From a virus: a stretch of 24,840 nucleotides of DNA. The position numbers and the translations under genes are program-made. Shown one piece after another: positions 10,099-24,840 of the stretch. How positions within the stretch are numbered: position 1 is the first letter of the stretch; each line of letters opens with the position of its first letter. The notes under the pieces were generated by a model. That model did not search any database. It was given only the letters and a program-made list of their open reading frames with translations, and was not told the origin of the DNA. The stretch lies in UHGV virus genome UHGV-0183909; one strand, 5' to 3'.

Positions 10099-10568
10099 GC
10101 ATGCTGAAAGAAGTTCAGGCCTTCCTTGCCAAAAATCCTGGGTCCGGAAGTGCGGAGATTGTGGAGGCGTTCAGCCAGTACAGCGCACGAAGTATTCAAC
10201 GCACAGTGTGCCGACTTTATGACCTGAACCGTGCTACTCGTGAAACCGTTGGTAACCGCTTTGTCTACTCAGCTGATATGCCACTGGATATGGCGAAAGG
10301 GTGCGCTTCTCCTGCAAAAGTCGTTGTTCAACAAATGCCACGACAGGTAGTTACTCATCTCATCGAAAAAGCCGATCACCTTATGAGTCGTGGACTTTAT
10401 CGCCGCGCTGCCACGATGTTCATGGAAGCGTTCGAAGGGGCTGTTCATACCGAAGAGCGAGACTATTGCTTACGCCAGCGTCAGCGCTGCCTAAAGAAAT
10501 GCGCAGTGGACAAAAAGCGGCAGGAGGAATGGTGTCTTGCCGGGAAGTTTTGTGGAGGTGACATGTGA
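10095..10568 (+). CDS. PerC-like putative transcriptional regulator, in the position usually held by a helicase loader
   Basis: Start overlaps the O-like stop (ATGA). Motif SRGLYRRAATMFMEAF resembles the conserved GLWRRAA core of PerC-family activators as I recall it. Confidence 0.55.
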   Translation: MSMLKEVQAFLAKNPGSGSAEIVEAFSQYSARSIQRTVCRLYDLNRATRETVGNRFVYSADMPLDMAKGCASPAKVVVQQMPRQVVTHLIEKADHLMSRGLYRRAATMFMEAFEGAVHTEERDYCLRQRQRCLKKCAVDKKRQEEWCLAGKFCGGDM

Positions 10569-11233
10569 ACTACGAGCTGATTTACGCCGATCCTCCATGG
10601 TCATACGACAACACAGCCAGCAACGGTGCAGCAGAAAACCATTATGGAACGATGAAGCTCATCGACATTAAACGCCTTCCAGTGTGGGAGCTTTCTGCTG
10701 AAAACGCCGTGTTGGCCATGTGGTACACCGGGACGCATACCCGCGAGGCTATAGAGCTGGCGGAAGCATGGGGATTCAAGGTCCGCACGATGAAGGGCTT
10801 CACCTGGGTCAAGTTCAATCCGCTCGCGGAGAAGCACATCAACAAAGCGCTGCAGGCTGGGGGTGTGGAGGACTTTTACGATTTCCTCGACCTGTTGAAC
10901 GTCCAGACCAGGATGAACGGCGGCAACCACACCCGAGCCAATACAGAAGACCTGTTGATCGCCACAAAAGGGAAGGGGTTAGAGCGCCTGAACGCCGGTA
11001 TTAAGCAGGTTGTTTACAGCCCACTCGGTGTACACAGCCAAAAGCCCTGGGAAGTTCGCCACCGCTTAGAGCTACTTTACGGTGATGTATCGCGCATTGA
11101 ATTATTCAGCCGCAACGGTTCGCCAGGCTGGGACCACTGGGGCAATGAAGCGGAAAACCCTTCGGTGTTTATGGCTCCTGGTTATGTCTGTCCGGTTGAT
11201 ATGCAGGATGAGGTGACCAATGCCGGGTATTGA
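10565..11233 (+). CDS. MT-A70 family DNA N6-adenine methyltransferase (orphan, no adjacent restriction enzyme)
   Basis: GTG start overlapping the upstream stop. LIYADPPWSY contains the DPPW catalytic motif near the N-terminus, typical of MT-A70-type enzymes. Confidence 0.85.
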   Translation: MNYELIYADPPWSYDNTASNGAAENHYGTMKLIDIKRLPVWELSAENAVLAMWYTGTHTREAIELAEAWGFKVRTMKGFTWVKFNPLAEKHINKALQAGGVEDFYDFLDLLNVQTRMNGGNHTRANTEDLLIATKGKGLERLNAGIKQVVYSPLGVHSQKPWEVRHRLELLYGDVSRIELFSRNGSPGWDHWGNEAENPSVFMAPGYVCPVDMQDEVTNAGY

Positions 11234-13053: not shown

Positions 13054-14043
13054 GTGAGAGCTCTGTTAACGCCGGAAGTTGCTAATGGGCTGGGTATCGT
13101 ATTGTTCCGTCCCGGTCCTGACCTGATGTACCTGTTCAAACGTGGGCGCGTACTGATTGAAGAAGAGCCGGAGAACTACGCCACCTTTCCAACAGGGGCA
13201 ATCCCTCCCGCATCTCAACCACTGGCAGAAGAGCCAATGATGAAGGCCGTGTTTGAGAATAAGAAGGTGATAGCGCGTGCTGGTGGGCTTGTTTCACTCG
13301 ACAGGTGGTTAGAGAGTTCATTCGTCTGTCAGTGGCCCCACAACGACTATCACAGCCCGCATTTTACGCTGTTTCGCCATTATCCAGGCTCAATCAGATT
13401 GTGCTGGGCATGTGATAACCAATTACGTGATCAGACCACGGAAAGACTGGCAGGCATAGCGCGTGAAAACCTGGTATCCTGGATTTTATCTGTAGTGCTT
13501 CGTGAGCTGGGTTTCAGTGATGACCACCAGCTTACTCTTCCTGAGTTTTGCTGGTGGATGGTGCGAAGTGGCCTGGCTGATGTCATCCCTGAAGGGATAG
13601 CGACTAAAGCCATGGGAATGAAGCCAGAAGAGCATCAGTCAGTGATGCGGGAGAGTGACATTGTTCCGCGTCCGGCAGCGACGGAAGTACTGCAGGAAAG
13701 GGCGAAAAAGGTACTGACGATAAAGGTTGATGACGAATCGCCGGAATCTTTCATGCTGAGGCCTAAGCGCCGTCGCTGGGAAAATGAGAAGTACACGCGC
13801 TGGGTTAAAGCACAGCCGTGCGCCTGCTGTAACAAGCAGGCAGATGACCCCCATCACCTGATAGGCCACGGTCAGGGTGGAATGGGTACAAAAGCGCATG
13901 ATCTCTTTGTGTTGCCGTTGTGCAGGCTGCATCACCGGGAGCTTCATGATGACACCGTGGCATTTGAGAAGAAATACGGCTCACAACTGGAGCTGATATT
14001 TCGTTTTATCGATCGTGCGCTGGCAACCGGCGTACTGGCGTAA
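13054..14043 (+). CDS. DUF968 (YdfU-like) protein with a C-terminal Cys/His-rich motif
   Basis: 329-aa ORF with GTG start. C-terminus CACCNKQADDPHHLIGHG...LCRLHHRELHDD. Sits directly upstream of the Q-like gene, as ydfU does in the Qin prophage. Confidence 0.75.
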   Translation: MRALLTPEVANGLGIVLFRPGPDLMYLFKRGRVLIEEEPENYATFPTGAIPPASQPLAEEPMMKAVFENKKVIARAGGLVSLDRWLESSFVCQWPHNDYHSPHFTLFRHYPGSIRLCWACDNQLRDQTTERLAGIARENLVSWILSVVLRELGFSDDHQLTLPEFCWWMVRSGLADVIPEGIATKAMGMKPEEHQSVMRESDIVPRPAATEVLQERAKKVLTIKVDDESPESFMLRPKRRRWENEKYTRWVKAQPCACCNKQADDPHHLIGHGQGGMGTKAHDLFVLPLCRLHHRELHDDTVAFEKKYGSQLELIFRFIDRALATGVLA

Positions 14044-14055
14044 GTGGAGAACGCT

Positions 14056-14889
14056 ATGAACCTTGAAGCCCTACCAAAATTTTATTCACCAAAATCGCCA
14101 AAGTTGAGTGATGACGCGCCAGCAACCAGCAATGATGCATTGTCTGTGACTGATGTGATGGCTGCACAGGGGATGACACAGAACCGCGCATCATTTGGCT
14201 TTTCTGCGTTCCTGGGGAAGTTGGGGATCAGCATCACTGAAAAAGAAAAGGCTATCGCGCTTCTTTCTAATTATGCCCTTGCTCGCTGCGACAGAGTCCC
14301 GGCGCTTCGAAAATTGAGCGCTGAAATCAAGCCAAAAGTAATTCGCATTCTCGCTGTTTATGCATTCGAGGATTATTCTCGAAGTGCAAGCACTACACGA
14401 ATCTGTGACTGCTGTAATGGTGAAGGGTTTATTGATGCCGAAGTCTTCAGCATGAAAACCCACACACCAGGCAAGAATAAAGAATTTGTCAAAATGTCAC
14501 TGCATATGGGCGTAAAAGATATCAAGCCATCAGCATATGAGGTGCGCAGACAAGTGAGAGAAATAAACCGCGTTCTGTGCCATCAGTGCAAAGGGAAGAA
14601 AGTAGTTAGTTCCTCATGCAACGATTGCCATGGTCGCGGTAAGGCCGTAAACCGCGAATTAACTGCAAAGCAGGGAGTACCGGTATTCACCGACTGTAAA
14701 CGATGCGGTGGTAATGGCTATGCAAGAATGCCGTCAACGGAAGCACTGGAAGCAATACGCCTTGTTACTGATGCCATTTCTCTCGATACATGGAAAAAGT
14801 CTGTGAAGAAGTTCTATGACGATCTCATTGAAAAGTTCGAAGTAGAAGAGGCATGGGCTGAAGAGCAATTGCGGCGGGTAACAAAATAA
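14056..14889 (+). CDS. Late-gene antitermination protein Q (lambdoid Q family with zinc-binding Cys clusters)
   Basis: GGAGAA RBS then ATG at 14056. Cys clusters CDCCNGEG, CHQCKGKK, CNDCHGRGK, CKRCGGNG. Last gene before the tandem terminators and the lysis cassette. Confidence 0.75.
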   Translation: MNLEALPKFYSPKSPKLSDDAPATSNDALSVTDVMAAQGMTQNRASFGFSAFLGKLGISITEKEKAIALLSNYALARCDRVPALRKLSAEIKPKVIRILAVYAFEDYSRSASTTRICDCCNGEGFIDAEVFSMKTHTPGKNKEFVKMSLHMGVKDIKPSAYEVRRQVREINRVLCHQCKGKKVVSSSCNDCHGRGKAVNRELTAKQGVPVFTDCKRCGGNGYARMPSTEALEAIRLVTDAISLDTWKKSVKKFYDDLIEKFEVEEAWAEEQLRRVTK

Positions 14890-15022: not shown

Positions 15023-15023
15023 A

Positions 15024-15048
15024 GGGCTGCCAATTGGTGGCCTTTTTT
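15024..15048 (+). terminator. Second tandem intrinsic terminator before the lysis genes
   Basis: GGCTGCCAATTGGTGGCC hairpin followed by TTTTTTATT. Confidence 0.6.
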
Positions 15049-17940: not shown

Positions 17941-17958
17941 AACAGAATGAAAAATAGA

Positions 17959-17980
17959 GGTCGCTTAGGCGACCTTTTTT
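17959..17980 (+). terminator. Intrinsic terminator downstream of the DUF551 gene
   Basis: GGTCGC-TTAG-GCGACC hairpin followed by TTTTTT. Confidence 0.7.
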
Positions 17981-18100
17981 ATTGCGCTTCGCACGCGCAT
18001 ATCGAAGAGAGTCTTTCAGTAGTGAGCCTGGGTAATGCCGTTAGGTTGCGTTTACCTCTCGGGCGGCGTTGCCGTGCGACAGGCTCACGTCTAAAAGGAA

Positions 18101-19564
18101 ATGCACATGCAGGTCACAATAGATGGTGTCCCGTATGCACCTGTCAATAATTCACACTCAGCGGTAGGGATCGCCATAACTACGCATAACAGACCTGATG
18201 TTCTTAAGCGTGCCATCGAGCAGCACATGAAGCATCTTCCGTCCGGTGCGCTGGTGGTCGTCATCGACGATGGCTCAAAGCCTCCCGCTGTTGTACCGGC
18301 TAATGTAAAACTGGTTCGTCATGACCAATCATGCGGTATTGTCGCTTCGAAGAACGCCAGCCTGACCGCACTGGTGGATGCCGGGTGTGAGCATCTCTTC
18401 CTATGGGATGATGACGCGTGGCCCATCGCCGATAACTGGCATCTTCCCTACATCGAATCTCCCGAGCCGCACCTGGCTTACCAGTTTCTCGATCTTGCTG
18501 GGCCGAGAAAGCTTAATGATATGGCCGTGCTGTACCGGGATGATAAGCACATCGCTTACACCGGACAACGCGGTGTGATGCTGTATTACCACCGCAGCGC
18601 TATTGAGAAGGTTGGCGGTTTCGATCCGGTTTATGGTCGCGGCATGTACGAGCATCCAGATCTGGCGCTACGCATTCACAATGCCGGTTTATCGACCTGG
18701 GCGTTCGCTGATGTGGTCGGATCTGAAAAACTGATTCATTCAATGGATGAGCACGAAGAGGGTACGCGCTCAATTCCACGACCTGACCGAGAGGCGCTGG
18801 TAAAAAGAAACGTTGGCATATTCAATGCTCGCCGTGACAGCGGTTATACAGGCTTTTCCTCTTATAGCAGAAATCCAAATCTGGTGATTACGACGCTACT
18901 CACAAGCCAGCCAGACCCACAGCGCGGCGGAAAGATGAAACCCGACCCGCAGGTTCTGCAATCATGGGCTGACTCAATATCCGGCGCACTACCAATTGTC
19001 TTGGCTGACGAATTGAAAGAGTCGCCAACTGGTGCTGGTTTAAGTGAAGTCCCGCTGGTGGACATGAGCCCATACTTTGCTCGCTGGCTTCACATCTATC
19101 AGTTTCTACGTGCGCACCCTGAGTATCACCTTGTCTGGTGCACTGATGGTACTGACGTTGAAATGTTGCGAGAGCCCTGGGCAGAAATGCAGTCGGGTAA
19201 AATTTACGTTGGCTCAGAGCACAAGACGTATTCCGACGAATGGATGAAAGCAAATCACCACGGCAAGGCGTATAGCGATTTCATCGAGCAACATCGCGAT
19301 GAACCACTGCTAAATGCTGGCTTGTTAGGTGGTAACCGTGAAGACGTTATGGAGTTCGCGCATCGTATCATTCGTCAGTATTACCTGATTGAAAGTCATC
19401 GCTTCTGGAAGATTGAAAGAGCGCCTGAAACGAAGGTTGATATGGGTGCATTCGGCATGGTGGCGAAGTCATTTGGAGACAAGGTTATTACCGGGCCCAA
19501 GGTTCACACCATCTTCAAGTCTGAAGGCGTTGGCAAGGAGTTGGCATGGTGGATGCACAAGTAA
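18101..19564 (+). CDS. Two-domain glycosyltransferase: N-terminal GT2 (GT-A fold), C-terminal domain of unclear family
   Basis: 487-aa ORF. GT2 hallmarks: GIAITTHNRPDVLKRAIE, VVVIDDGS, LWDDDAWP (DxD) and VGGFD. C-terminal half (LVITTLLTS..., WCTDGTDVEML) may be a second nucleotide-sugar transferase-like domain. Confidence 0.8.
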   Translation: MHMQVTIDGVPYAPVNNSHSAVGIAITTHNRPDVLKRAIEQHMKHLPSGALVVVIDDGSKPPAVVPANVKLVRHDQSCGIVASKNASLTALVDAGCEHLFLWDDDAWPIADNWHLPYIESPEPHLAYQFLDLAGPRKLNDMAVLYRDDKHIAYTGQRGVMLYYHRSAIEKVGGFDPVYGRGMYEHPDLALRIHNAGLSTWAFADVVGSEKLIHSMDEHEEGTRSIPRPDREALVKRNVGIFNARRDSGYTGFSSYSRNPNLVITTLLTSQPDPQRGGKMKPDPQVLQSWADSISGALPIVLADELKESPTGAGLSEVPLVDMSPYFARWLHIYQFLRAHPEYHLVWCTDGTDVEMLREPWAEMQSGKIYVGSEHKTYSDEWMKANHHGKAYSDFIEQHRDEPLLNAGLLGGNREDVMEFAHRIIRQYYLIESHRFWKIERAPETKVDMGAFGMVAKSFGDKVITGPKVHTIFKSEGVGKELAWWMHK

Positions 19565-20139
19565 AGTTTGTGGTTGTTGGTCACCATCTGCGCCACAAAC
19601 AAGCATTAATTCTGGCTGAGTCGATAGGTGCATTACTGCTTATCGACACGGGAGATAACGGTGCTAACTGGAATCACCGCCGCGCTCTTGAATGGGCAGA
19701 AGAGCAGTCTTGCCGAGTGGTCATTTTAGAAGACGATGCAATTCCAGTTGATGGGTTCACCAACAAACTCGTTAAGTGGATTGAGCGCTTCCCTGATGCA
19801 CTGGTTTCTTTCTATCTCGGTACTGGTCGTCCTCCACAATATCAACTCGATATAGCATCAAAGCTAATCGCAGCAGATAAGAGCAGAACTGATTACATAA
19901 CACTTTCACGTCTGATCCATGGCGTCTGCTACAGCGTACCGCATCAGCATATCAAGCGAGTTCTTGATAAATGGAACCACGGCAAAGCAGCAGATTATGC
20001 AGTAGGTGATGCTTATGGTGGCCCTGTTGTTTATCCATGCTACTCGCTCGTTGACCATGCTGACGGACAGCCGGTAGAACCAGCGCGAGACAACCAGCCA
20101 CGTACAGAACGCCGAAGAGCATGGAGGTTACATGTCTAA
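19546..20139 (+). CDS. Putative GT25-like glycosyltransferase (LPS/LOS glycosyltransferase-like)
   Basis: AAGGAG RBS; start overlaps the 3' end of the GT2 gene. GANWNHRRALEWAEEQSCRVVILEDDAIPVDGF resembles the GT25 signature (G..GC..SH..W...ILEDD), as I recall it. Confidence 0.6.
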   Translation: MVDAQVKFVVVGHHLRHKQALILAESIGALLLIDTGDNGANWNHRRALEWAEEQSCRVVILEDDAIPVDGFTNKLVKWIERFPDALVSFYLGTGRPPQYQLDIASKLIAADKSRTDYITLSRLIHGVCYSVPHQHIKRVLDKWNHGKAADYAVGDAYGGPVVYPCYSLVDHADGQPVEPARDNQPRTERRRAWRLHV

Positions 20140-20500
20140 ACTAAAGACACTACAGCCACGCCTTAAAGCTATCGACACGCGGCGCATCAAACCTATCTAT
20201 GGTGAGCATCGTCGAGTCAGTGGCAGTGCCAGGGTAAGCCTGAAGCGACGTATCTATGTTCGCGACGGTGGTCATTGCTGCATGTGCAAGCGAGTAGTAG
20301 ACCTGCATGACAGTGAGCTTGACCACCGCATTGCTCTACAGTTCGGCGGTGACAACGATGAGCGCAACCTTTGGACGCTGTGCATCGAGTGTCATTCAGG
20401 TAAGTCATCGCGAGAAGCATCAATGAACCAGCCTGATGGTGAGGCTCTGAAGCACTCTGTGCCGAAAGATAAATCACAATCTGGCATCGTAATTCTCTGA
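20132..20500 (+). CDS. HNH endonuclease (packaging-associated, upstream of small terminase)
   Basis: GGAGG RBS. HNH signature GGHCCMCKRVVDLHDSELDHRIALQFGGDNDERNLWTLCIECHSGK (two Cys pairs, His-Asn-His spacing). Confidence 0.85.
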   Translation: MSKLKTLQPRLKAIDTRRIKPIYGEHRRVSGSARVSLKRRIYVRDGGHCCMCKRVVDLHDSELDHRIALQFGGDNDERNLWTLCIECHSGKSSREASMNQPDGEALKHSVPKDKSQSGIVIL

Positions 20501-20600
20501 CCAAACACCGGGGGGGTATCAGTGGGTGTCAACGCCGATCGCGCTGGACACCGCGCCCCCTCTCACGCGTAGAAAAAATTCCCTTTTGGAGGGTGTTAAC

Positions 20601-21083
20601 GTGTTAACAGGACAGAAGCGCAAGTTCGCACAGGCGCGGATGTCCGGTTCATCCCAGGCTGAAGCAGCCCGTAAGGCCGGTTACTCCGAGAAAACCGCAA
20701 GGTCTCAGGGTTCACGGCTGGCAAAAGACCCGGATATCATCGCTTACATTGAAAAAAATGGAGCAGGTGATAAGCCTTCAAAATTTGTTGGGCTGCCAAT
20801 TCCTCCATCAGCGAAGGTGGGAAAAGATCTACCCATGGAGGTAGAGCCAGTACCGACCCTGAACAAATATGAAGATCCTCTTGAATTCCTGAAATCTGTC
20901 ATGAATGACCCAACTCTTGAACTTGATGACAGAAAAGACGCAGCGAAGGCGATGCTTCCATACATTCATCAGAAAAAAGGTGAGGGTGGGAAAAAGGAAG
21001 CGAAAGGCGCAGCCGCAAAAAATGCAGCCAATAAGTTTGCCGTTCCTGCACCGCCGAAACTTGTTGTAAACAACCGGGGGTGA
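20601..21083 (+). CDS. Terminase small subunit (P27-like)
   Basis: GTG start after GGAGGG. LTGQKRKFAQARMSGSSQAEAARKAGYSEKTARSQGSRLAKDPDIIAYI matches the conserved N-terminal HTH region of P27-family small terminases. The longer GTG-initiated ORF from 20526 is possible. Confidence 0.75.
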   Translation: MLTGQKRKFAQARMSGSSQAEAARKAGYSEKTARSQGSRLAKDPDIIAYIEKNGAGDKPSKFVGLPIPPSAKVGKDLPMEVEPVPTLNKYEDPLEFLKSVMNDPTLELDDRKDAAKAMLPYIHQKKGEGGKKEAKGAAAKNAANKFAVPAPPKLVVNNRG

Positions 21084-21086
21084 TTA

Positions 21087-22745
21087 ATGCCAGAATGGAC
21101 TACAGCATGCCCTGACTGGAGTGAACGACTTAAGCGCGGTGATTCGATAATTCCACCACCGATTTATCCTGAACAGGCAGAGATAGCGCTTAATATTTTC
21201 AAGCAACTGAAAATAGTTGATGCGCCAGGCTCTCCAACGTTTGGTGAGTCGTGTGCCAATTGGGTGTTTGATCTGGTTGCGGCGCTTTTCGGTTCGTACG
21301 ATGCCGAAACAGGAAGGCGGCATATCACGGAAGTTTTCGTACTAATACCGAAAAAAAACAGTAAATCTACACTTGCTGCCGGAATTATGATGACGGCACT
21401 GCTTCTCAACTGGCGACAAGCTGCCGGCTACACAATTATTGCCCCAACTGTAGAAGTAGCAACGAACGCATTTAACCCCGCTCGCGATATGGTTAAGCGT
21501 GATGATGACCTTGATGATCTTTGCCAGGTACAAACCCATATTAGGACCATTACTCACCTGGTGAGCGATACCACGCTGAAGGTTGTTGCAGCAGATGCAA
21601 ACACTGTTTCTGGGATTAAATCAGTAGGAACGCTGATTGATGAACTTTGGCTATTCGGAAAGCAGGCAAATGCGGAGGATTTACTTCGTGAAGCGATAGG
21701 TGGTTTGGCATCTCGTCCTGAAGGATTCGTGATGTACACTACTACGCAATCAAACGAACCTCCAGCCGGTGTTTTTAAACAAAAACTTCAGTACGCTCGC
21801 GACGTTAGAGACGGGAAAATTATTGATCCAAACTTTCTTCCCGTTATTTTCGAACACCCGCCAGAAATGGTTGCCAACGGCGATCACCTTCTTCTTGAAA
21901 ATATGCCGATGGTTAACCCTAACTTGGGGTATTCGGTCGATGAGCAGTTTCTTAATCGTGAGTTTAGGAAAGCCAAAGAAGCAGGAGAAGAAGCATTTCG
22001 TGGATTCATGGCAAAGCACGCGAACATAGAGATTGGTTTGGCGTTACGTGCTGACCGATGGGCAGGTGCTGATTTCTGGGAGCAACAAGCAGAAAGGGTA
22101 AGTTTTGAAGAAATTATTCAACGCAGCGAGGTCATCACGGTTGGTATTGATGGTGGTGGTCTTGATGACCTACTTGGACTGTCAATAACCGGCAGAGATA
22201 AAGACACGCGAAAATGGATATCCTGGAGCCATGCTTGGGCCCACGAAATTATGCTTGAACGCCGTAAAAGCGAGATATCGAAACTGCGTGATTTTGAAAA
22301 GGCCGGAGACTTCACCATTGTGAAGCGAGTTGGTCAGGACACAGAGCAAGTTGCAGAGTACGTCAGCAGAATTTATGAAGCTGATTTGCTGGATAAGATT
22401 GGTATTGACCCGGCAGGCGTTGGGCAAATTCTGGATGCACTGGTTGAGGCAGGAATCCCTCCTGAACTGGTAGTCGGTATCAGTCAGGGCTGGCGACTTG
22501 GCGGCGCGATAATGACTACCGAGCGAAAACTTGCTGAAGGCGTCCTGATCCACGGCGGTCAGCCGATGATGGCCTGGTGCGTTGGTAACGCAAGGGTAGA
22601 ACCTAAGGGTAACGCCATCCTGATTACCAAGCAGGCCAGTGGGAAGGGGAAAATTGACCCCCTTATGGCGCTATTTAATGCCGTCTCGTTAATGGCACTG
22701 AATCCAGAGGCGAAGAAACAAGATTACCAGGTATTTTTCATATAA
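21087..22745 (+). CDS. Terminase large subunit (ATPase plus nuclease)
   Basis: 552-aa ORF. Walker A-like region VFVLIPKKNSKSTLAAGIMMTALLL; C-terminal nuclease-like region VGIDGGGLDDLLGLSITG. Confidence 0.9.
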   Translation: MPEWTTACPDWSERLKRGDSIIPPPIYPEQAEIALNIFKQLKIVDAPGSPTFGESCANWVFDLVAALFGSYDAETGRRHITEVFVLIPKKNSKSTLAAGIMMTALLLNWRQAAGYTIIAPTVEVATNAFNPARDMVKRDDDLDDLCQVQTHIRTITHLVSDTTLKVVAADANTVSGIKSVGTLIDELWLFGKQANAEDLLREAIGGLASRPEGFVMYTTTQSNEPPAGVFKQKLQYARDVRDGKIIDPNFLPVIFEHPPEMVANGDHLLLENMPMVNPNLGYSVDEQFLNREFRKAKEAGEEAFRGFMAKHANIEIGLALRADRWAGADFWEQQAERVSFEEIIQRSEVITVGIDGGGLDDLLGLSITGRDKDTRKWISWSHAWAHEIMLERRKSEISKLRDFEKAGDFTIVKRVGQDTEQVAEYVSRIYEADLLDKIGIDPAGVGQILDALVEAGIPPELVVGISQGWRLGGAIMTTERKLAEGVLIHGGQPMMAWCVGNARVEPKGNAILITKQASGKGKIDPLMALFNAVSLMALNPEAKKQDYQVFFI

Positions 22746-22764
22746 CACACACGTCAGTTAATGA

Positions 22765-22784
22765 CCCGCTACGGCGGGTTTTTT
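22765..22784 (+). terminator. Hairpin plus U-run between the large terminase and the capsid ORF (terminator or attenuator)
   Basis: CCCGC-TACG-GCGGG followed by TTTTTT, then GGAGGA RBS and ATG at 22804. Confidence 0.5.
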
Positions 22785-22803
22785 CGTTTCTGGAGGACAG
22801 AAA

Positions 22804-24741
22804 ATGAAGCTTGACCGCGCATGTACCATCATGACGGTGAAAGCGGTGGATGAGGATAAACGGATTATCACCGGCATTGCCTCCACACCATCACCAGACC
22901 GTGACGGCGACATTATGGAGCCTGACGGCGCGAAGTTTGGCAGTGAAAACCCGTTTTTATGGCAGCACGACAGGTCTCAGCCCATCGGTAATTGCTCGGC
23001 GAAAAAGGTGAAAGAGGGGCTGCAAATTACAGCTCAACTTGTTAAGCCAACACCTGATATGCCATCGCAGCTGGTGGCCAGACTTGAAGAAGCGTGGGCA
23101 TCAATTAAGTCAGGACTTGTAAAAGGTCTGTCGATTGGTTTTAAGCCCATCAAATACGCTTATCTCGACTCTGGCGGCATTCAATTCCTCGAATGGGAGT
23201 TACTAGAAGTCTCTGCCGTAACCATTCCCGCTAATTCTGAGTGTTCAATTCAGACAGTTAAATCTTTTGACCGCCAGTTACTCGCCGCGCTTGGCAATGA
23301 GAAACGCGTGGTTAAAGCAAATCAATCCGCTGGCGCTACAGCACAAAAACAAACTTCTCAAAAAGGAAAACCAACGATGAATATCGCTGAACAGATCAAA
23401 AGTTTTGAAAACAAGCGTGCAGCGCTGGCCGCTTTACTGAATGACATCATGAGCAAAGCTGCTGATGAAGGTCGCACTCTGGATGTAGAAGAAACTGAAA
23501 GCTACGACAACACCTCTACGGAAATCAAATCGGTAGACGAACACCTGAAACGCCTTCGTGACATGGAAGCCAGCATGGCATCAACCGCGAAGCCGGTGAC
23601 CAAAACTGCAAACGGTGAAGTTACTGTGATTAATAACGGGCCGTCCATCATTCGCGTAGAGCCGAAACTGGAAAAAGGTATCGCTTTTGCCCGTTTCGCA
23701 AAGTCACTGGCCGCTGGTAACGGTAGCCGATCTGAAGCCCTGCAGATTGCGAAAAACCAGTATCCTGATGACACTAAACTTCATCATGTCCTGAAAGCGG
23801 CGGTTAGTGCCGGTACTACTACAGACCCGACCTGGGCTGGCGCACTGGTAGAATACCAGGATTACGCACAGGACTTCGTTGAATTCCTGCGTCCGCAGAC
23901 CATTATTGGTCGCTTTGGTCAGGGTAATATCCCTTCTCTTCGTCAGGTTCCATTCAACGTTCGTATTCCAGCGCAAACCTCAGGCGGTTCAGCAAGCTGG
24001 GTAGGTCAGGGTAAAGCAAAACCTCTGACTAAATTTGACTTTGCCACCATCACCTTCGGTTTCTCCAAAGTGGCATCTATCGCAGTGTTGACCGAAGAAC
24101 TGATCCGCTTCTCTAACCCATCTGCTGATGCTCTGGTGCGAAATGCACTGGCAGAAGCGGTGATCGCGCGACTGGATACAGACTTCATTGACCCTGCTAA
24201 AGCGGCGGTCGCTGATGTTTCTCCGGCATCTATCACCAATGGCATCACTGCTATTCCTTCTACCGGTGATCCTGATACTGATGCTTCTGCAGCATTTGGT
24301 CAGTTCATTACGAACAACCTGCAGCCGAATGGTGCGGTATGGCTGATGTCCAGCACTACGGCACTTACTCTGTCTATGCGTAAAAACGCGCTTGGTCAGA
24401 AAGAATACCCGGATATGACCATGCTGGGCGGTACGTTCCAGGGCTTGCCGGTGATCGTTTCACAGTACGTTGGCAACCAATTGGTACTGGTTAACGCACC
24501 AGATGTTTATCTGGCAGATGATGGTGGCGTCGCCGTTGATATGTCTCGCGAAGCTTCTCTGGAAATGCAGAGCGCTCCGACCCACGACAGCACAACGCCA
24601 ACTCCAGTTGAATTGGTTTCGATGTTCCAGACTAACAGCGTGGCAATTCGTGCTGAGCGCTGGATTAACTGGAAACGCCGCCGTGATGCAGCCGTAGCTG
24701 TTATTTCTGACGTTGATTACAGCACTGGTTCAACCAGCTAA
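22804..24741 (+). CDS. Fused prohead protease / scaffold-like linker / HK97-fold major capsid protein
   Basis: 645-aa ORF. N-terminal third carries HK97-type prohead protease motifs (IITGIASTPSPDRDGDIMEPDGAKF, NPFLWQHDRSQPIG). Middle is a charged coiled-coil-like linker. C-terminal ~400 aa resembles HK97-fold capsid proteins. In-frame internal ATG at 23377 has an AAAAGGA RBS. Confidence 0.8.
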   Translation: MKLDRACTIMTVKAVDEDKRIITGIASTPSPDRDGDIMEPDGAKFGSENPFLWQHDRSQPIGNCSAKKVKEGLQITAQLVKPTPDMPSQLVARLEEAWASIKSGLVKGLSIGFKPIKYAYLDSGGIQFLEWELLEVSAVTIPANSECSIQTVKSFDRQLLAALGNEKRVVKANQSAGATAQKQTSQKGKPTMNIAEQIKSFENKRAALAALLNDIMSKAADEGRTLDVEETESYDNTSTEIKSVDEHLKRLRDMEASMASTAKPVTKTANGEVTVINNGPSIIRVEPKLEKGIAFARFAKSLAAGNGSRSEALQIAKNQYPDDTKLHHVLKAAVSAGTTTDPTWAGALVEYQDYAQDFVEFLRPQTIIGRFGQGNIPSLRQVPFNVRIPAQTSGGSASWVGQGKAKPLTKFDFATITFGFSKVASIAVLTEELIRFSNPSADALVRNALAEAVIARLDTDFIDPAKAAVADVSPASITNGITAIPSTGDPDTDASAAFGQFITNNLQPNGAVWLMSSTTALTLSMRKNALGQKEYPDMTMLGGTFQGLPVIVSQYVGNQLVLVNAPDVYLADDGGVAVDMSREASLEMQSAPTHDSTTPTPVELVSMFQTNSVAIRAERWINWKRRRDAAVAVISDVDYSTGSTS

Positions 24742-24840
24742 GAAGGAGGGCGGGGGAAACCCCCATAAGCGCTAACTTAAGGGTTGTGGTATTACGCCTG
24801 ATATGATTTAACGTGCCGATGAATTACTCTCACGATAACT

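Follow-up and report, generated by a model that had tools for sequence, protein, structure and literature searches.

The 24,840-nucleotide stretch of the virus genome UHGV-0183909 analysed here (hereafter the window) carries two overlapping genes for glycosyltransferases (GTs), designated GT1 (487 amino acids, aa) and GT2 (197 aa), between its lysis genes and its packaging genes. The pair is probably a late virion-protein glycosylation system, which O-glycosylates the capsid and tail-tube proteins at their C-terminal serine. This assignment draws on the homology, predicted folds, synteny, late-operon position and solubility of the two enzymes, as well as on their co-occurrence with an acceptor motif on the capsid and tail-tube proteins. 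An original prediction, made from the letters of the sequence, had placed both open reading frames (ORFs) exactly and had listed virion-protein glycosylation among several candidate functions, with remodelling of lipopolysaccharide (LPS) or O-antigen as the leading idea, but considered that none of them could be decided from sequence. Homology to mycobacteriophage enzymes, Che8 gp110 in particular, and the co-varying acceptor signature narrow the function strongly and support the virion-protein option.

Relationship to mycobacteriophage virion-glycosylation enzymes

GT1 and GT2 were searched by tblastn against approximately 50,000 phage genomes, which yielded 606 and 715 records, respectively. 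Most of these belonged to mycobacteriophages of clusters F, O, and C, and the rest to a few enterobacterial HK97-like phages (mEp390, ENT39118, ECP1, Fraca, FSL SP-016, and AsXd-1). Full-length alignments of GT2 were obtained with Che8 gp110 (37% identity, E = 4e-31) and Corndog gp38 (32% identity, E = 3e-18); the EDD motif, H125, and a DHxD motif were invariant in this comparison. GT1 shared 44% identity, over all 487 aa, with the GT of the Fruitloop gp99 type, found at the corresponding site in most cluster F phages (about 380). Within the mycobacteriophage cassettes (Che8 gp108-110, Corndog gp36-38, and Fruitloop gp99/gp102), GT2 is orthologous to gp110, gp38, and gp102, and GT1 to gp99. 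In the literature, Che8 gp110 and Corndog gp38 are described as essential glycosyltransferases for capsid glycosylation (PMC12363180), and the glycans are located on the C-termini of capsid and tail-tube subunits (PMC12619734, PMC11256854); such papers also state that the mycobacteriophage glycans shield the virion from antibodies.

Gene order was also comparable. The order in Che8 is GT-GT-GT-x-HNH, followed by the genome end, and in the window, mEp390, ENT39118, FSL SP-016, and E. coli prophages it is GT-GT-HNH, followed by cos/terS. In the window, translation of the HNH gene is coupled to that of GT2; its place in the gene order corresponds to that of Che8 gp112, to which its product is 37% identical. 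In Corndog and in one of the loci compared below (L245), the GT genes abut the gene of the major capsid protein (MCP) inside the structural block. Both of these locations, the right genome end beside a gp74-type HNH gene or the structural block, are common to the mycobacterial and enterobacterial systems, as are soluble GT-A folds and Gly-Ser-COOH ends on the capsid and tube, where glycans were mapped in mycobacteriophages according to the papers cited above. Between phages of Actinobacteria and Enterobacteriaceae the pair retains 30–44% identity, which indicates a phage-encoded substrate rather than a host-envelope one. As far as sequence allows a judgement, the pair agrees with the mycobacteriophage virion-glycosylation family in every respect that could be examined. 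Homologs of both GTs (56% and 44% identity) were also found in the jumbo phages KpZh (Serratia/Klebsiella, ~299 kb), so the pair occurs beyond temperate siphophages too.

The window system differs from its mycobacteriophage counterparts in several features. Its hosts are Gram-negative, gut-associated Enterobacteriaceae, the closest GT1 relative being from Citrobacter freundii (97% identity), and its backbone is lambdoid/HK97-like, with a protease-MCP fusion ending in -TS as the capsid protein. Che8 has three separate enzymes, whereas the window has a two-domain enzyme and one small enzyme, with no methyltransferase. Glycans have been reported on mycobacteriophage particles; the window system is known here from its genes.

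Profile searches assigned GT1 to PHROG 1579 (E = 7e-230) and GT2 to PHROG 854 (E = 3e-70), both end to end. More than 1,000 homologous protein clusters were found for GT1 and more than 1,800 for GT2, and AlphaFold models were confident (GT1, pLDDT 93.4 and pTM 0.80; GT2, pLDDT 82.3 and pTM 0.81), so both are real genes and not chance ORFs. The earlier view that the two proteins are glycosyltransferases was correct. All motifs named at that time were present and conserved in alignments. In an alignment of 125 sequences, D56/D57 (VVVIDDGS), D103/D105 (DDD), and G172/G173 (VGGFD) of the N-terminal half of GT1 were invariant or nearly so, and D349/D352, of the acidic motif in the C-terminal half, were invariant. 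E62 and D64 of the ILEDD motif of GT2 were likewise invariant, mycobacteriophage homologs included.

The N-terminal domain of GT1 combines a GT-A fold with DDGS, DXD, and GGFD-type motifs, as in glycosyltransferase family 2. Its match to the corresponding Pfam model PF00535 (residues 24-109) was sub-threshold (18.9 bits against a cut-off of 23.3), and a PF00535 match is precomputed for many GT1 homologs. The C-terminal domain of GT1, searched alone, matched no Pfam family and no PDB sequence, and neither GT2 nor the C-terminal half of GT1 had a match in the Pfam search. Overall, searches of Pfam, NCBIfam, and PADLOC gave nothing decisive, PADLOC giving no match; apart from the sub-threshold match, the only hits were partial matches to MftF and EpsD, which were judged spurious. 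The best structural matches of GT2 were Mimivirus R655, GlfT2, GnT-I, and POMGnT1. The giant-virus and chlorovirus enzymes (PBCV-1 A64R, Mimivirus R655 and R699) have no detectable sequence homology to the pair, and they differ from it in having eukaryotic hosts and another acceptor chemistry. The proposed likeness of the 197-aa protein to GT25 lipooligosaccharide galactosyltransferases (PF01755) was rejected: both have the GT-A fold and, following strand 4, an (I/L)xEDD motif, but no Glyco_transf_25 profile match was obtained, a GT25 enzyme ranked only 20th among the structural matches of GT2, and the likeness was unspecific, as a dozen other GT-A families matched at least as well.

No membrane segment or signal peptide was detected in either protein. 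The maximum hydrophobicity (Kyte-Doolittle, 19-residue window) was 0.98 for GT1 and 1.15 for GT2, compared to 2.10 for a holin used as a control. GT1 and GT2 are soluble glycosyltransferases of the GT-A fold. In public annotation they appear as "glycosyltransferase family 2 protein" and "hypothetical protein", or as morons.

C-terminal signature on capsid and tail-tube proteins

The acceptor signature was defined as an MCP or tail-tube protein ending in Gly/Thr-Ser-COOH ([GT]S), and other ORFs of at least 100 aa served as the background. The MCP of the window ends in ...DYSTGSTS, with a tail of about 10 residues extending past the Pfam capsid domain (domain end at residue 634 of 645). It is the sole protein with a [GT]S ending among the 23 plus-strand ORFs of this size in the window. 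The tube gene of the window phage lies outside the window; tubes of the closest relatives end in ...AQPTS. The signature was present in each of six GT-positive phages: Che8 (MCP gp6 ...NKTGS, tube gp11 ...YSDGS), Corndog (MCP ...PLVGS), Fruitloop (MCP ...TGS, tube ...DGS), mEp390 (MCP ...SSGS, tube ...ASGS), ENT39118 (MCP ...SSGS, tube ...AAGS), and FSL SP-016 (MCP ...GAGS, tube ...DPGS).

Approximately 160 loci were compared in all, 80 of them IMG/VR loci chosen for capsid homology (78% or more identity to the window MCP) and 79 chosen for GT2 homology; the cross-phylum alignment query yielded mostly enterobacterial loci. Both GTs were found in every capsid-selected locus with sufficient upstream sequence. 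In this set the [GT]S ending was carried by 80 of 81 MCPs and by 59 of 61 tubes, which represented four tube families; three more ORFs with this ending formed a fifth tube family, and among the remaining ORFs of at least 100 aa it occurred in 3 of about 1,387. The GT2-selected loci gave nearly the same picture (66/67 genuine MCPs of two unrelated capsid types, and 62/64 tubes). A third architecture was observed in locus L245 (7552-13265), where GT1 and GT2 lie between an unrelated MCP and the connector and tail genes, in a placement that resembles Corndog. Its MCP (phrog_247) ends in ...SGGSGS and its major tail protein (phrog_290), which belongs to an unrelated family, in ...DGQGS. Across two phyla, the motif of GT-positive loci was seen on proteins of five or more MCP families and some six tube families. 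The background frequency in other ORFs was about 0.2–1%, and GT-negative loci had the ending in 6 of 998 ORFs.

Lineages without the enzymes showed the opposite pattern. In a clade of Stx-converting phages, the MCP of which is 79% identical to that of the window, both GTs were absent from all 45 informative loci; the MCP ended in ...SGG in 80 of 80 cases and never had a terminal serine (0/80). The motif was also absent from the PAJU2 and Mcat2 capsids and from the tubes of HK97 and HK022, the latter being homologous to the type A tube, which ends in ...PTS in GT-positive phages. Counted by lineage, the motif was present in 10 of 10 GT-positive and in 1 of 8 GT-negative lineages (Fisher's exact test, p = 2.5e-4). 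Strict matching of -TS or -GS between the MCP and the tube of one phage was checked and does not hold.

These data do not support the description of the pair as cargo outside a conserved virion module, since it accompanies the same capsid wherever the upstream sequence was long enough, stands between capsid and tail genes in one lineage, and does not differ from its flanks in base composition, a compositional anomaly of the cassette having been looked for and not found. The pair behaves largely as a conserved core component of the virion module of this phage; in a wider comparison it is accessory, being absent from HK97 and the Stx phages.

Some further endings and tube features were observed in the same loci. 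The head-tail adaptor Ad1 (phrog_40) ends in ...E[GT]S in five GT-positive loci (L209 16358-16789, L224 16484-16810, L225 12444-12770, L229 16354-16677, and L240 16386-16712), and homologs of the tail terminator have a -TS ending in four loci; these proteins could be extra acceptors or chance cases. GT-positive tubes are almost always short (147–165 aa) and match only the N-terminal half of phrog_158, with a [GT]S end (for example, L008 16190-16687, L090 6680-7150, L089 15169-15612, and L028 16024-16476), while the GT-negative HK97 and Stx tubes possess a C-terminal Ig-like domain (L091 6733-7437 and L088 15233-16078). Three GT-positive loci with Ig-domain tubes (L034, L035, and L228) end in ...TVTVA, without a serine. 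The tube glycan may be a substitute for Ig-like decoration.

Late-operon position, proposed mechanism and alternatives

The window corresponds to two thirds of a lambdoid prophage, counted from its left end. The genes for integrase and a CI-like repressor come first, then O-like replication genes, a DNA methyltransferase gene, and the gene of a Q-like antiterminator with a tR'-like terminator. Two holins, endolysin, spanins, small ORFs, and a DUF551 gene are next; the GT pair, the HNH gene, the terminase genes, and the capsid gene then follow on a single strand, the GT pair being on the strand of Q and the lysis genes and downstream of them. The late operon defined by Q extends from the lysis genes across the GT pair to the terminase and capsid genes. 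No terminator was found between the GT genes and the packaging genes, and no sigma-70 promoter was predicted before the GT genes on the plus strand.

According to the proposed mechanism, the GTs would be late products, synthesised alongside the lysis, packaging, and structural proteins when Q allows read-through of the terminator upstream of the pair. As soluble enzymes they would use cytoplasmic nucleotide sugars in the induced cell, and their target would be the exposed extreme C-terminus ...Gly/Thr-Ser-COOH of the MCP and the tail-tube protein. GT2 would put the first sugar on the terminal serine, two more would be supplied by the two catalytic domains of GT1, and released particles would carry a glycan coat. 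GT2 is probably the first-sugar enzyme because no other component is found in all the versions (Che8, Corndog, Fruitloop, and enterobacterial). We propose this detailed division of labour between GT1 and GT2 with less confidence than the modification of the virion itself.

Several points weigh against glycosylation of the virion as the function of the pair. GT1 had no homology to the genetically tested Che8 gp108 or gp109, and co-occurrence is the only basis for its proposed role. What is stated of the acceptor residue comes from papers citing Freeman et al. 2023 (Cell Host Microbe 31:1216), and in the literature on glycosylated Gram-negative phages, mEp390, and newer E. coli phages no functional work on the enterobacterial versions was found. 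The MCP of the window ends in -TS and those of the validated phages in -GS. Most of the compared loci are related to one another, and the counts are therefore not counts of independent events. The HK97 and HK022 capsid proteins gp5 (L091 4028-5185 and L175 4028-5185, respectively) end in ...FSSGS although these phages have KilA-N in the GT slot and no GTs, which means that the motif alone is not diagnostic and may partly reflect shared ancestry. The capsid of these two phages is nearly identical to that of the GT-positive mEp390 and ENT39118, and the exception fits an exchange of head modules among the Hendrixvirinae. With its natural SGS end, HK97 gp5 would be a ready-made test substrate. Finally, the terminator and portable leader upstream of GT1 (described below) resemble the boundary of a moron and leave room for independent expression.

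Among other explanations, the one which survives best is that the enzymes act during lytic growth on some other target, for instance a small molecule or a protein of the host, in takeover or anti-defence, or another virion component like the head-tail adaptor or the tail fibres, and that the motif is coincidental or ancestral. The GT-A fold does not reveal acceptor specificity, and both the GT-less SGS capsid of HK97 and HK022 and the [GT]S endings of Ad1 and tail-terminator proteins in a few loci could be accommodated in this way. We nevertheless regard it as unlikely, as several MCP and tube families of two phyla carried the motif only where GTs were present, and the terminal serine was absent from the 79%-identical capsid clade without GTs; in addition, a function in capsid glycosylation is reported for Che8 gp110 in the literature cited above.

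Lysogenic conversion, i.e., remodelling of the LPS core, O-antigen, or another host surface glycan with blocking of superinfection, was the leading idea at the outset, and we now consider it quite improbable. Prophage-borne GTs are classically serotype-converting, the PHROG category of both families is "moron, auxiliary metabolic gene and host takeover", and the upstream boundary is moron-like. The GtrABC cassettes of P22, SfV, SfX, and similar phages are likewise GT genes of temperate enterobacterial phages, but they encode membrane proteins, use a bactoprenol-linked sugar, lie beside int/att, and are expressed in the lysogen, features not present in the window pair. As the original prediction had correctly noted, the pair is not GtrABC-like: both enzymes are soluble, no GtrA-, GtrB-, or GtrC-like partners were found, and the distance from int is about 16 kb. 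A late-operon site without a predicted promoter of its own, the presence of the same pair in mycobacteriophages, whose hosts have no LPS, its location inside the structural gene block in L245 and Corndog, and its tight linkage to the C-terminal motif of capsid and tube all argue against a host-surface substrate. Glycosylation of phage genome bases as a means of restriction evasion is the least probable explanation: GTs hypermodifying phage DNA are well known (cited in PMC12619734) and the pair adjoins packaging genes, but the early region of the window encodes no dCMP/dUMP hydroxymethylase or other base-hypermodification (base-activation) gene, only an ordinary DNA methyltransferase, the nearest characterised homolog acts on virion proteins, and this hypothesis gives no reason why the pair should co-vary with the ends of the capsid and tube proteins.

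If virion-protein glycosylation is indeed the function of the pair, it would reach well beyond the window. Enterobacteriaceae prophages contribute more than 1,000 protein clusters with the same enzymes and C-terminal signature, and the carriers include cultured, genetically tractable phages (mEp390, ENT39118, FSL SP-016, and ECP1) as well as human-gut contigs. On this basis, the virions of a very common group of enteric prophages are predicted to be coated with glycans. A broader version of this proposal, with about even chances in our estimation, is that the terminal Gly/Thr-Ser-COOH is a portable "glyco-tag" read by a gp110-like enzyme and that a large share of the temperate phages of gut Enterobacteriaceae release glycan-coated virions; the hosts concerned would be Citrobacter, Enterobacter, Salmonella, Klebsiella, and E. 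coli, and in the mammalian gut the coat could change how the virions are recognised by antibodies or interact with mucus. To our knowledge, phage virion glycosylation has been demonstrated in mycobacteriophages only, and Freeman and colleagues, in the abstract of their 2023 study, reportedly saw few signs of it among phages at large. Our assignment, if true, would extend it from Actinobacteria to Gram-negative hosts and would change the PHROG "moron / host takeover" label to virion modification. The immunogenicity, neutralisation, and pharmacokinetics of phages would be affected, in phage therapy as well as in the gut. Glycosylated phages could be predicted by a simple sequence rule, the combination of a gp110-like GT with [GT]S endings on the MCP and tube, and the two genes would represent a minimal soluble, tag-directed cytoplasmic O-glycosylation system usable in E. 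coli.

Window features and cassette boundaries

The coordinates of the features discussed are given in Table 1. The ORFs of GT1 and GT2 overlap by 19 nt, and the end of GT2 overlaps the HNH gene by 8 nt.

Table 1. Coordinates of the GT pair, predicted acceptor and associated features in the window
Feature	Position	Strand	Description
Q-like late antiterminator	14044-14889	+	PHROG 127, E=5e-100
tR'-like terminator	15023-15044		Between the Q-like gene and the holin genes
Intrinsic terminator	17956-17985	+	9-bp stem, 4-nt loop, T-run; stem at 17956-17977
Conserved leader	17986-18100	+	~115 nt, from the terminator to the GT1 start codon
GT1	18101-19564	+	487 aa; two GT-A domains, N-terminal at 18101-18850 and C-terminal at ~18863-19561
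GT2	19546-20139	+	197 aa; single-domain GT-A; EDD (DXD-type) motif at residues 62-64
HNH endonuclease, terminase accessory	20132-20500	+	HK97 gp74-type; Pfam HNH, E=4.5e-7; PHROG 589
Terminase small subunit	20526-21083	+	Pfam/PHROG profile searches
Terminase large subunit	21087-22745	+	Pfam/PHROG profile searches
Prohead protease-MCP fusion, predicted acceptor	22804-24741	+	645 aa; Pfam Peptidase_S78 and Phage_capsid
MCP C-terminal tail	24709-24738	+	DVDYSTGSTS-COOH; predicted O-glycosylation site (terminal Ser)

The intrinsic terminator expected upstream of the pair was present, with its stem at a slightly different position from the 17959-17980 given earlier. The leader which follows it was detected by megablast, with 80–95% identity, in otherwise unrelated lambdoid phages (HK639, phi80, mEp237, FSL SP-016, and Nissle prophages; copies at L172 2501-2616, L178 1501-1606, L179 2501-2619, and L089 ~2941-3045) and is thus a portable upstream module. 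The gene that follows the leader in phi80, HK639, FSL SP-016, and the E. coli Nissle prophages is N15 gp59-like (phrog_13555/29765); it has similarity to a domain of the tail fibre J and is usually the last gene before cos. The window has no N15 gp59-like gene at this point, and the leader abuts GT1. No Rfam family matched the leader, and its predicted hairpin was barely more stable than shuffled controls (z = −2.1).

Free-standing homing-type HNH genes (phrog_3593) were observed between GT1 and GT2 in mEp390 (gp55, L002 7617-8129) and AsXd-1 (L003 8779-9360), and FSL SP-016 has a 76-aa HNH remnant at this junction (L089 5320-5550); nothing separates GT1 from GT2 in the window, where they overlap. 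The early-to-late region of the window contains a DNA methyltransferase gene (phrog_359) and a gene for a DUF968/HNH-family protein (phrog_96), at 10565-11233 and 13054-14043, which resemble ordinary content of the lambdoid nin region.

The order of the head genes is unusual: terL is directly followed by the protease/MCP fusion, and the portal gene comes only after the capsid gene (window 21087-24741; L001 9411-14620). The same order of terL, fusion, and portal was observed in Stx phages, FSL SP-016, and PAJU2. An exact-match lookup found the capsid protein of the window on contigs from human-gut and other metagenomes. Every public contig with this exact MCP stops, like the window, about 100 bp past the MCP stop codon (24741-24840; L180-L182), which suggests that assemblies repeatedly break between the MCP and portal genes, at a repeat or at a junction that varies among strains.

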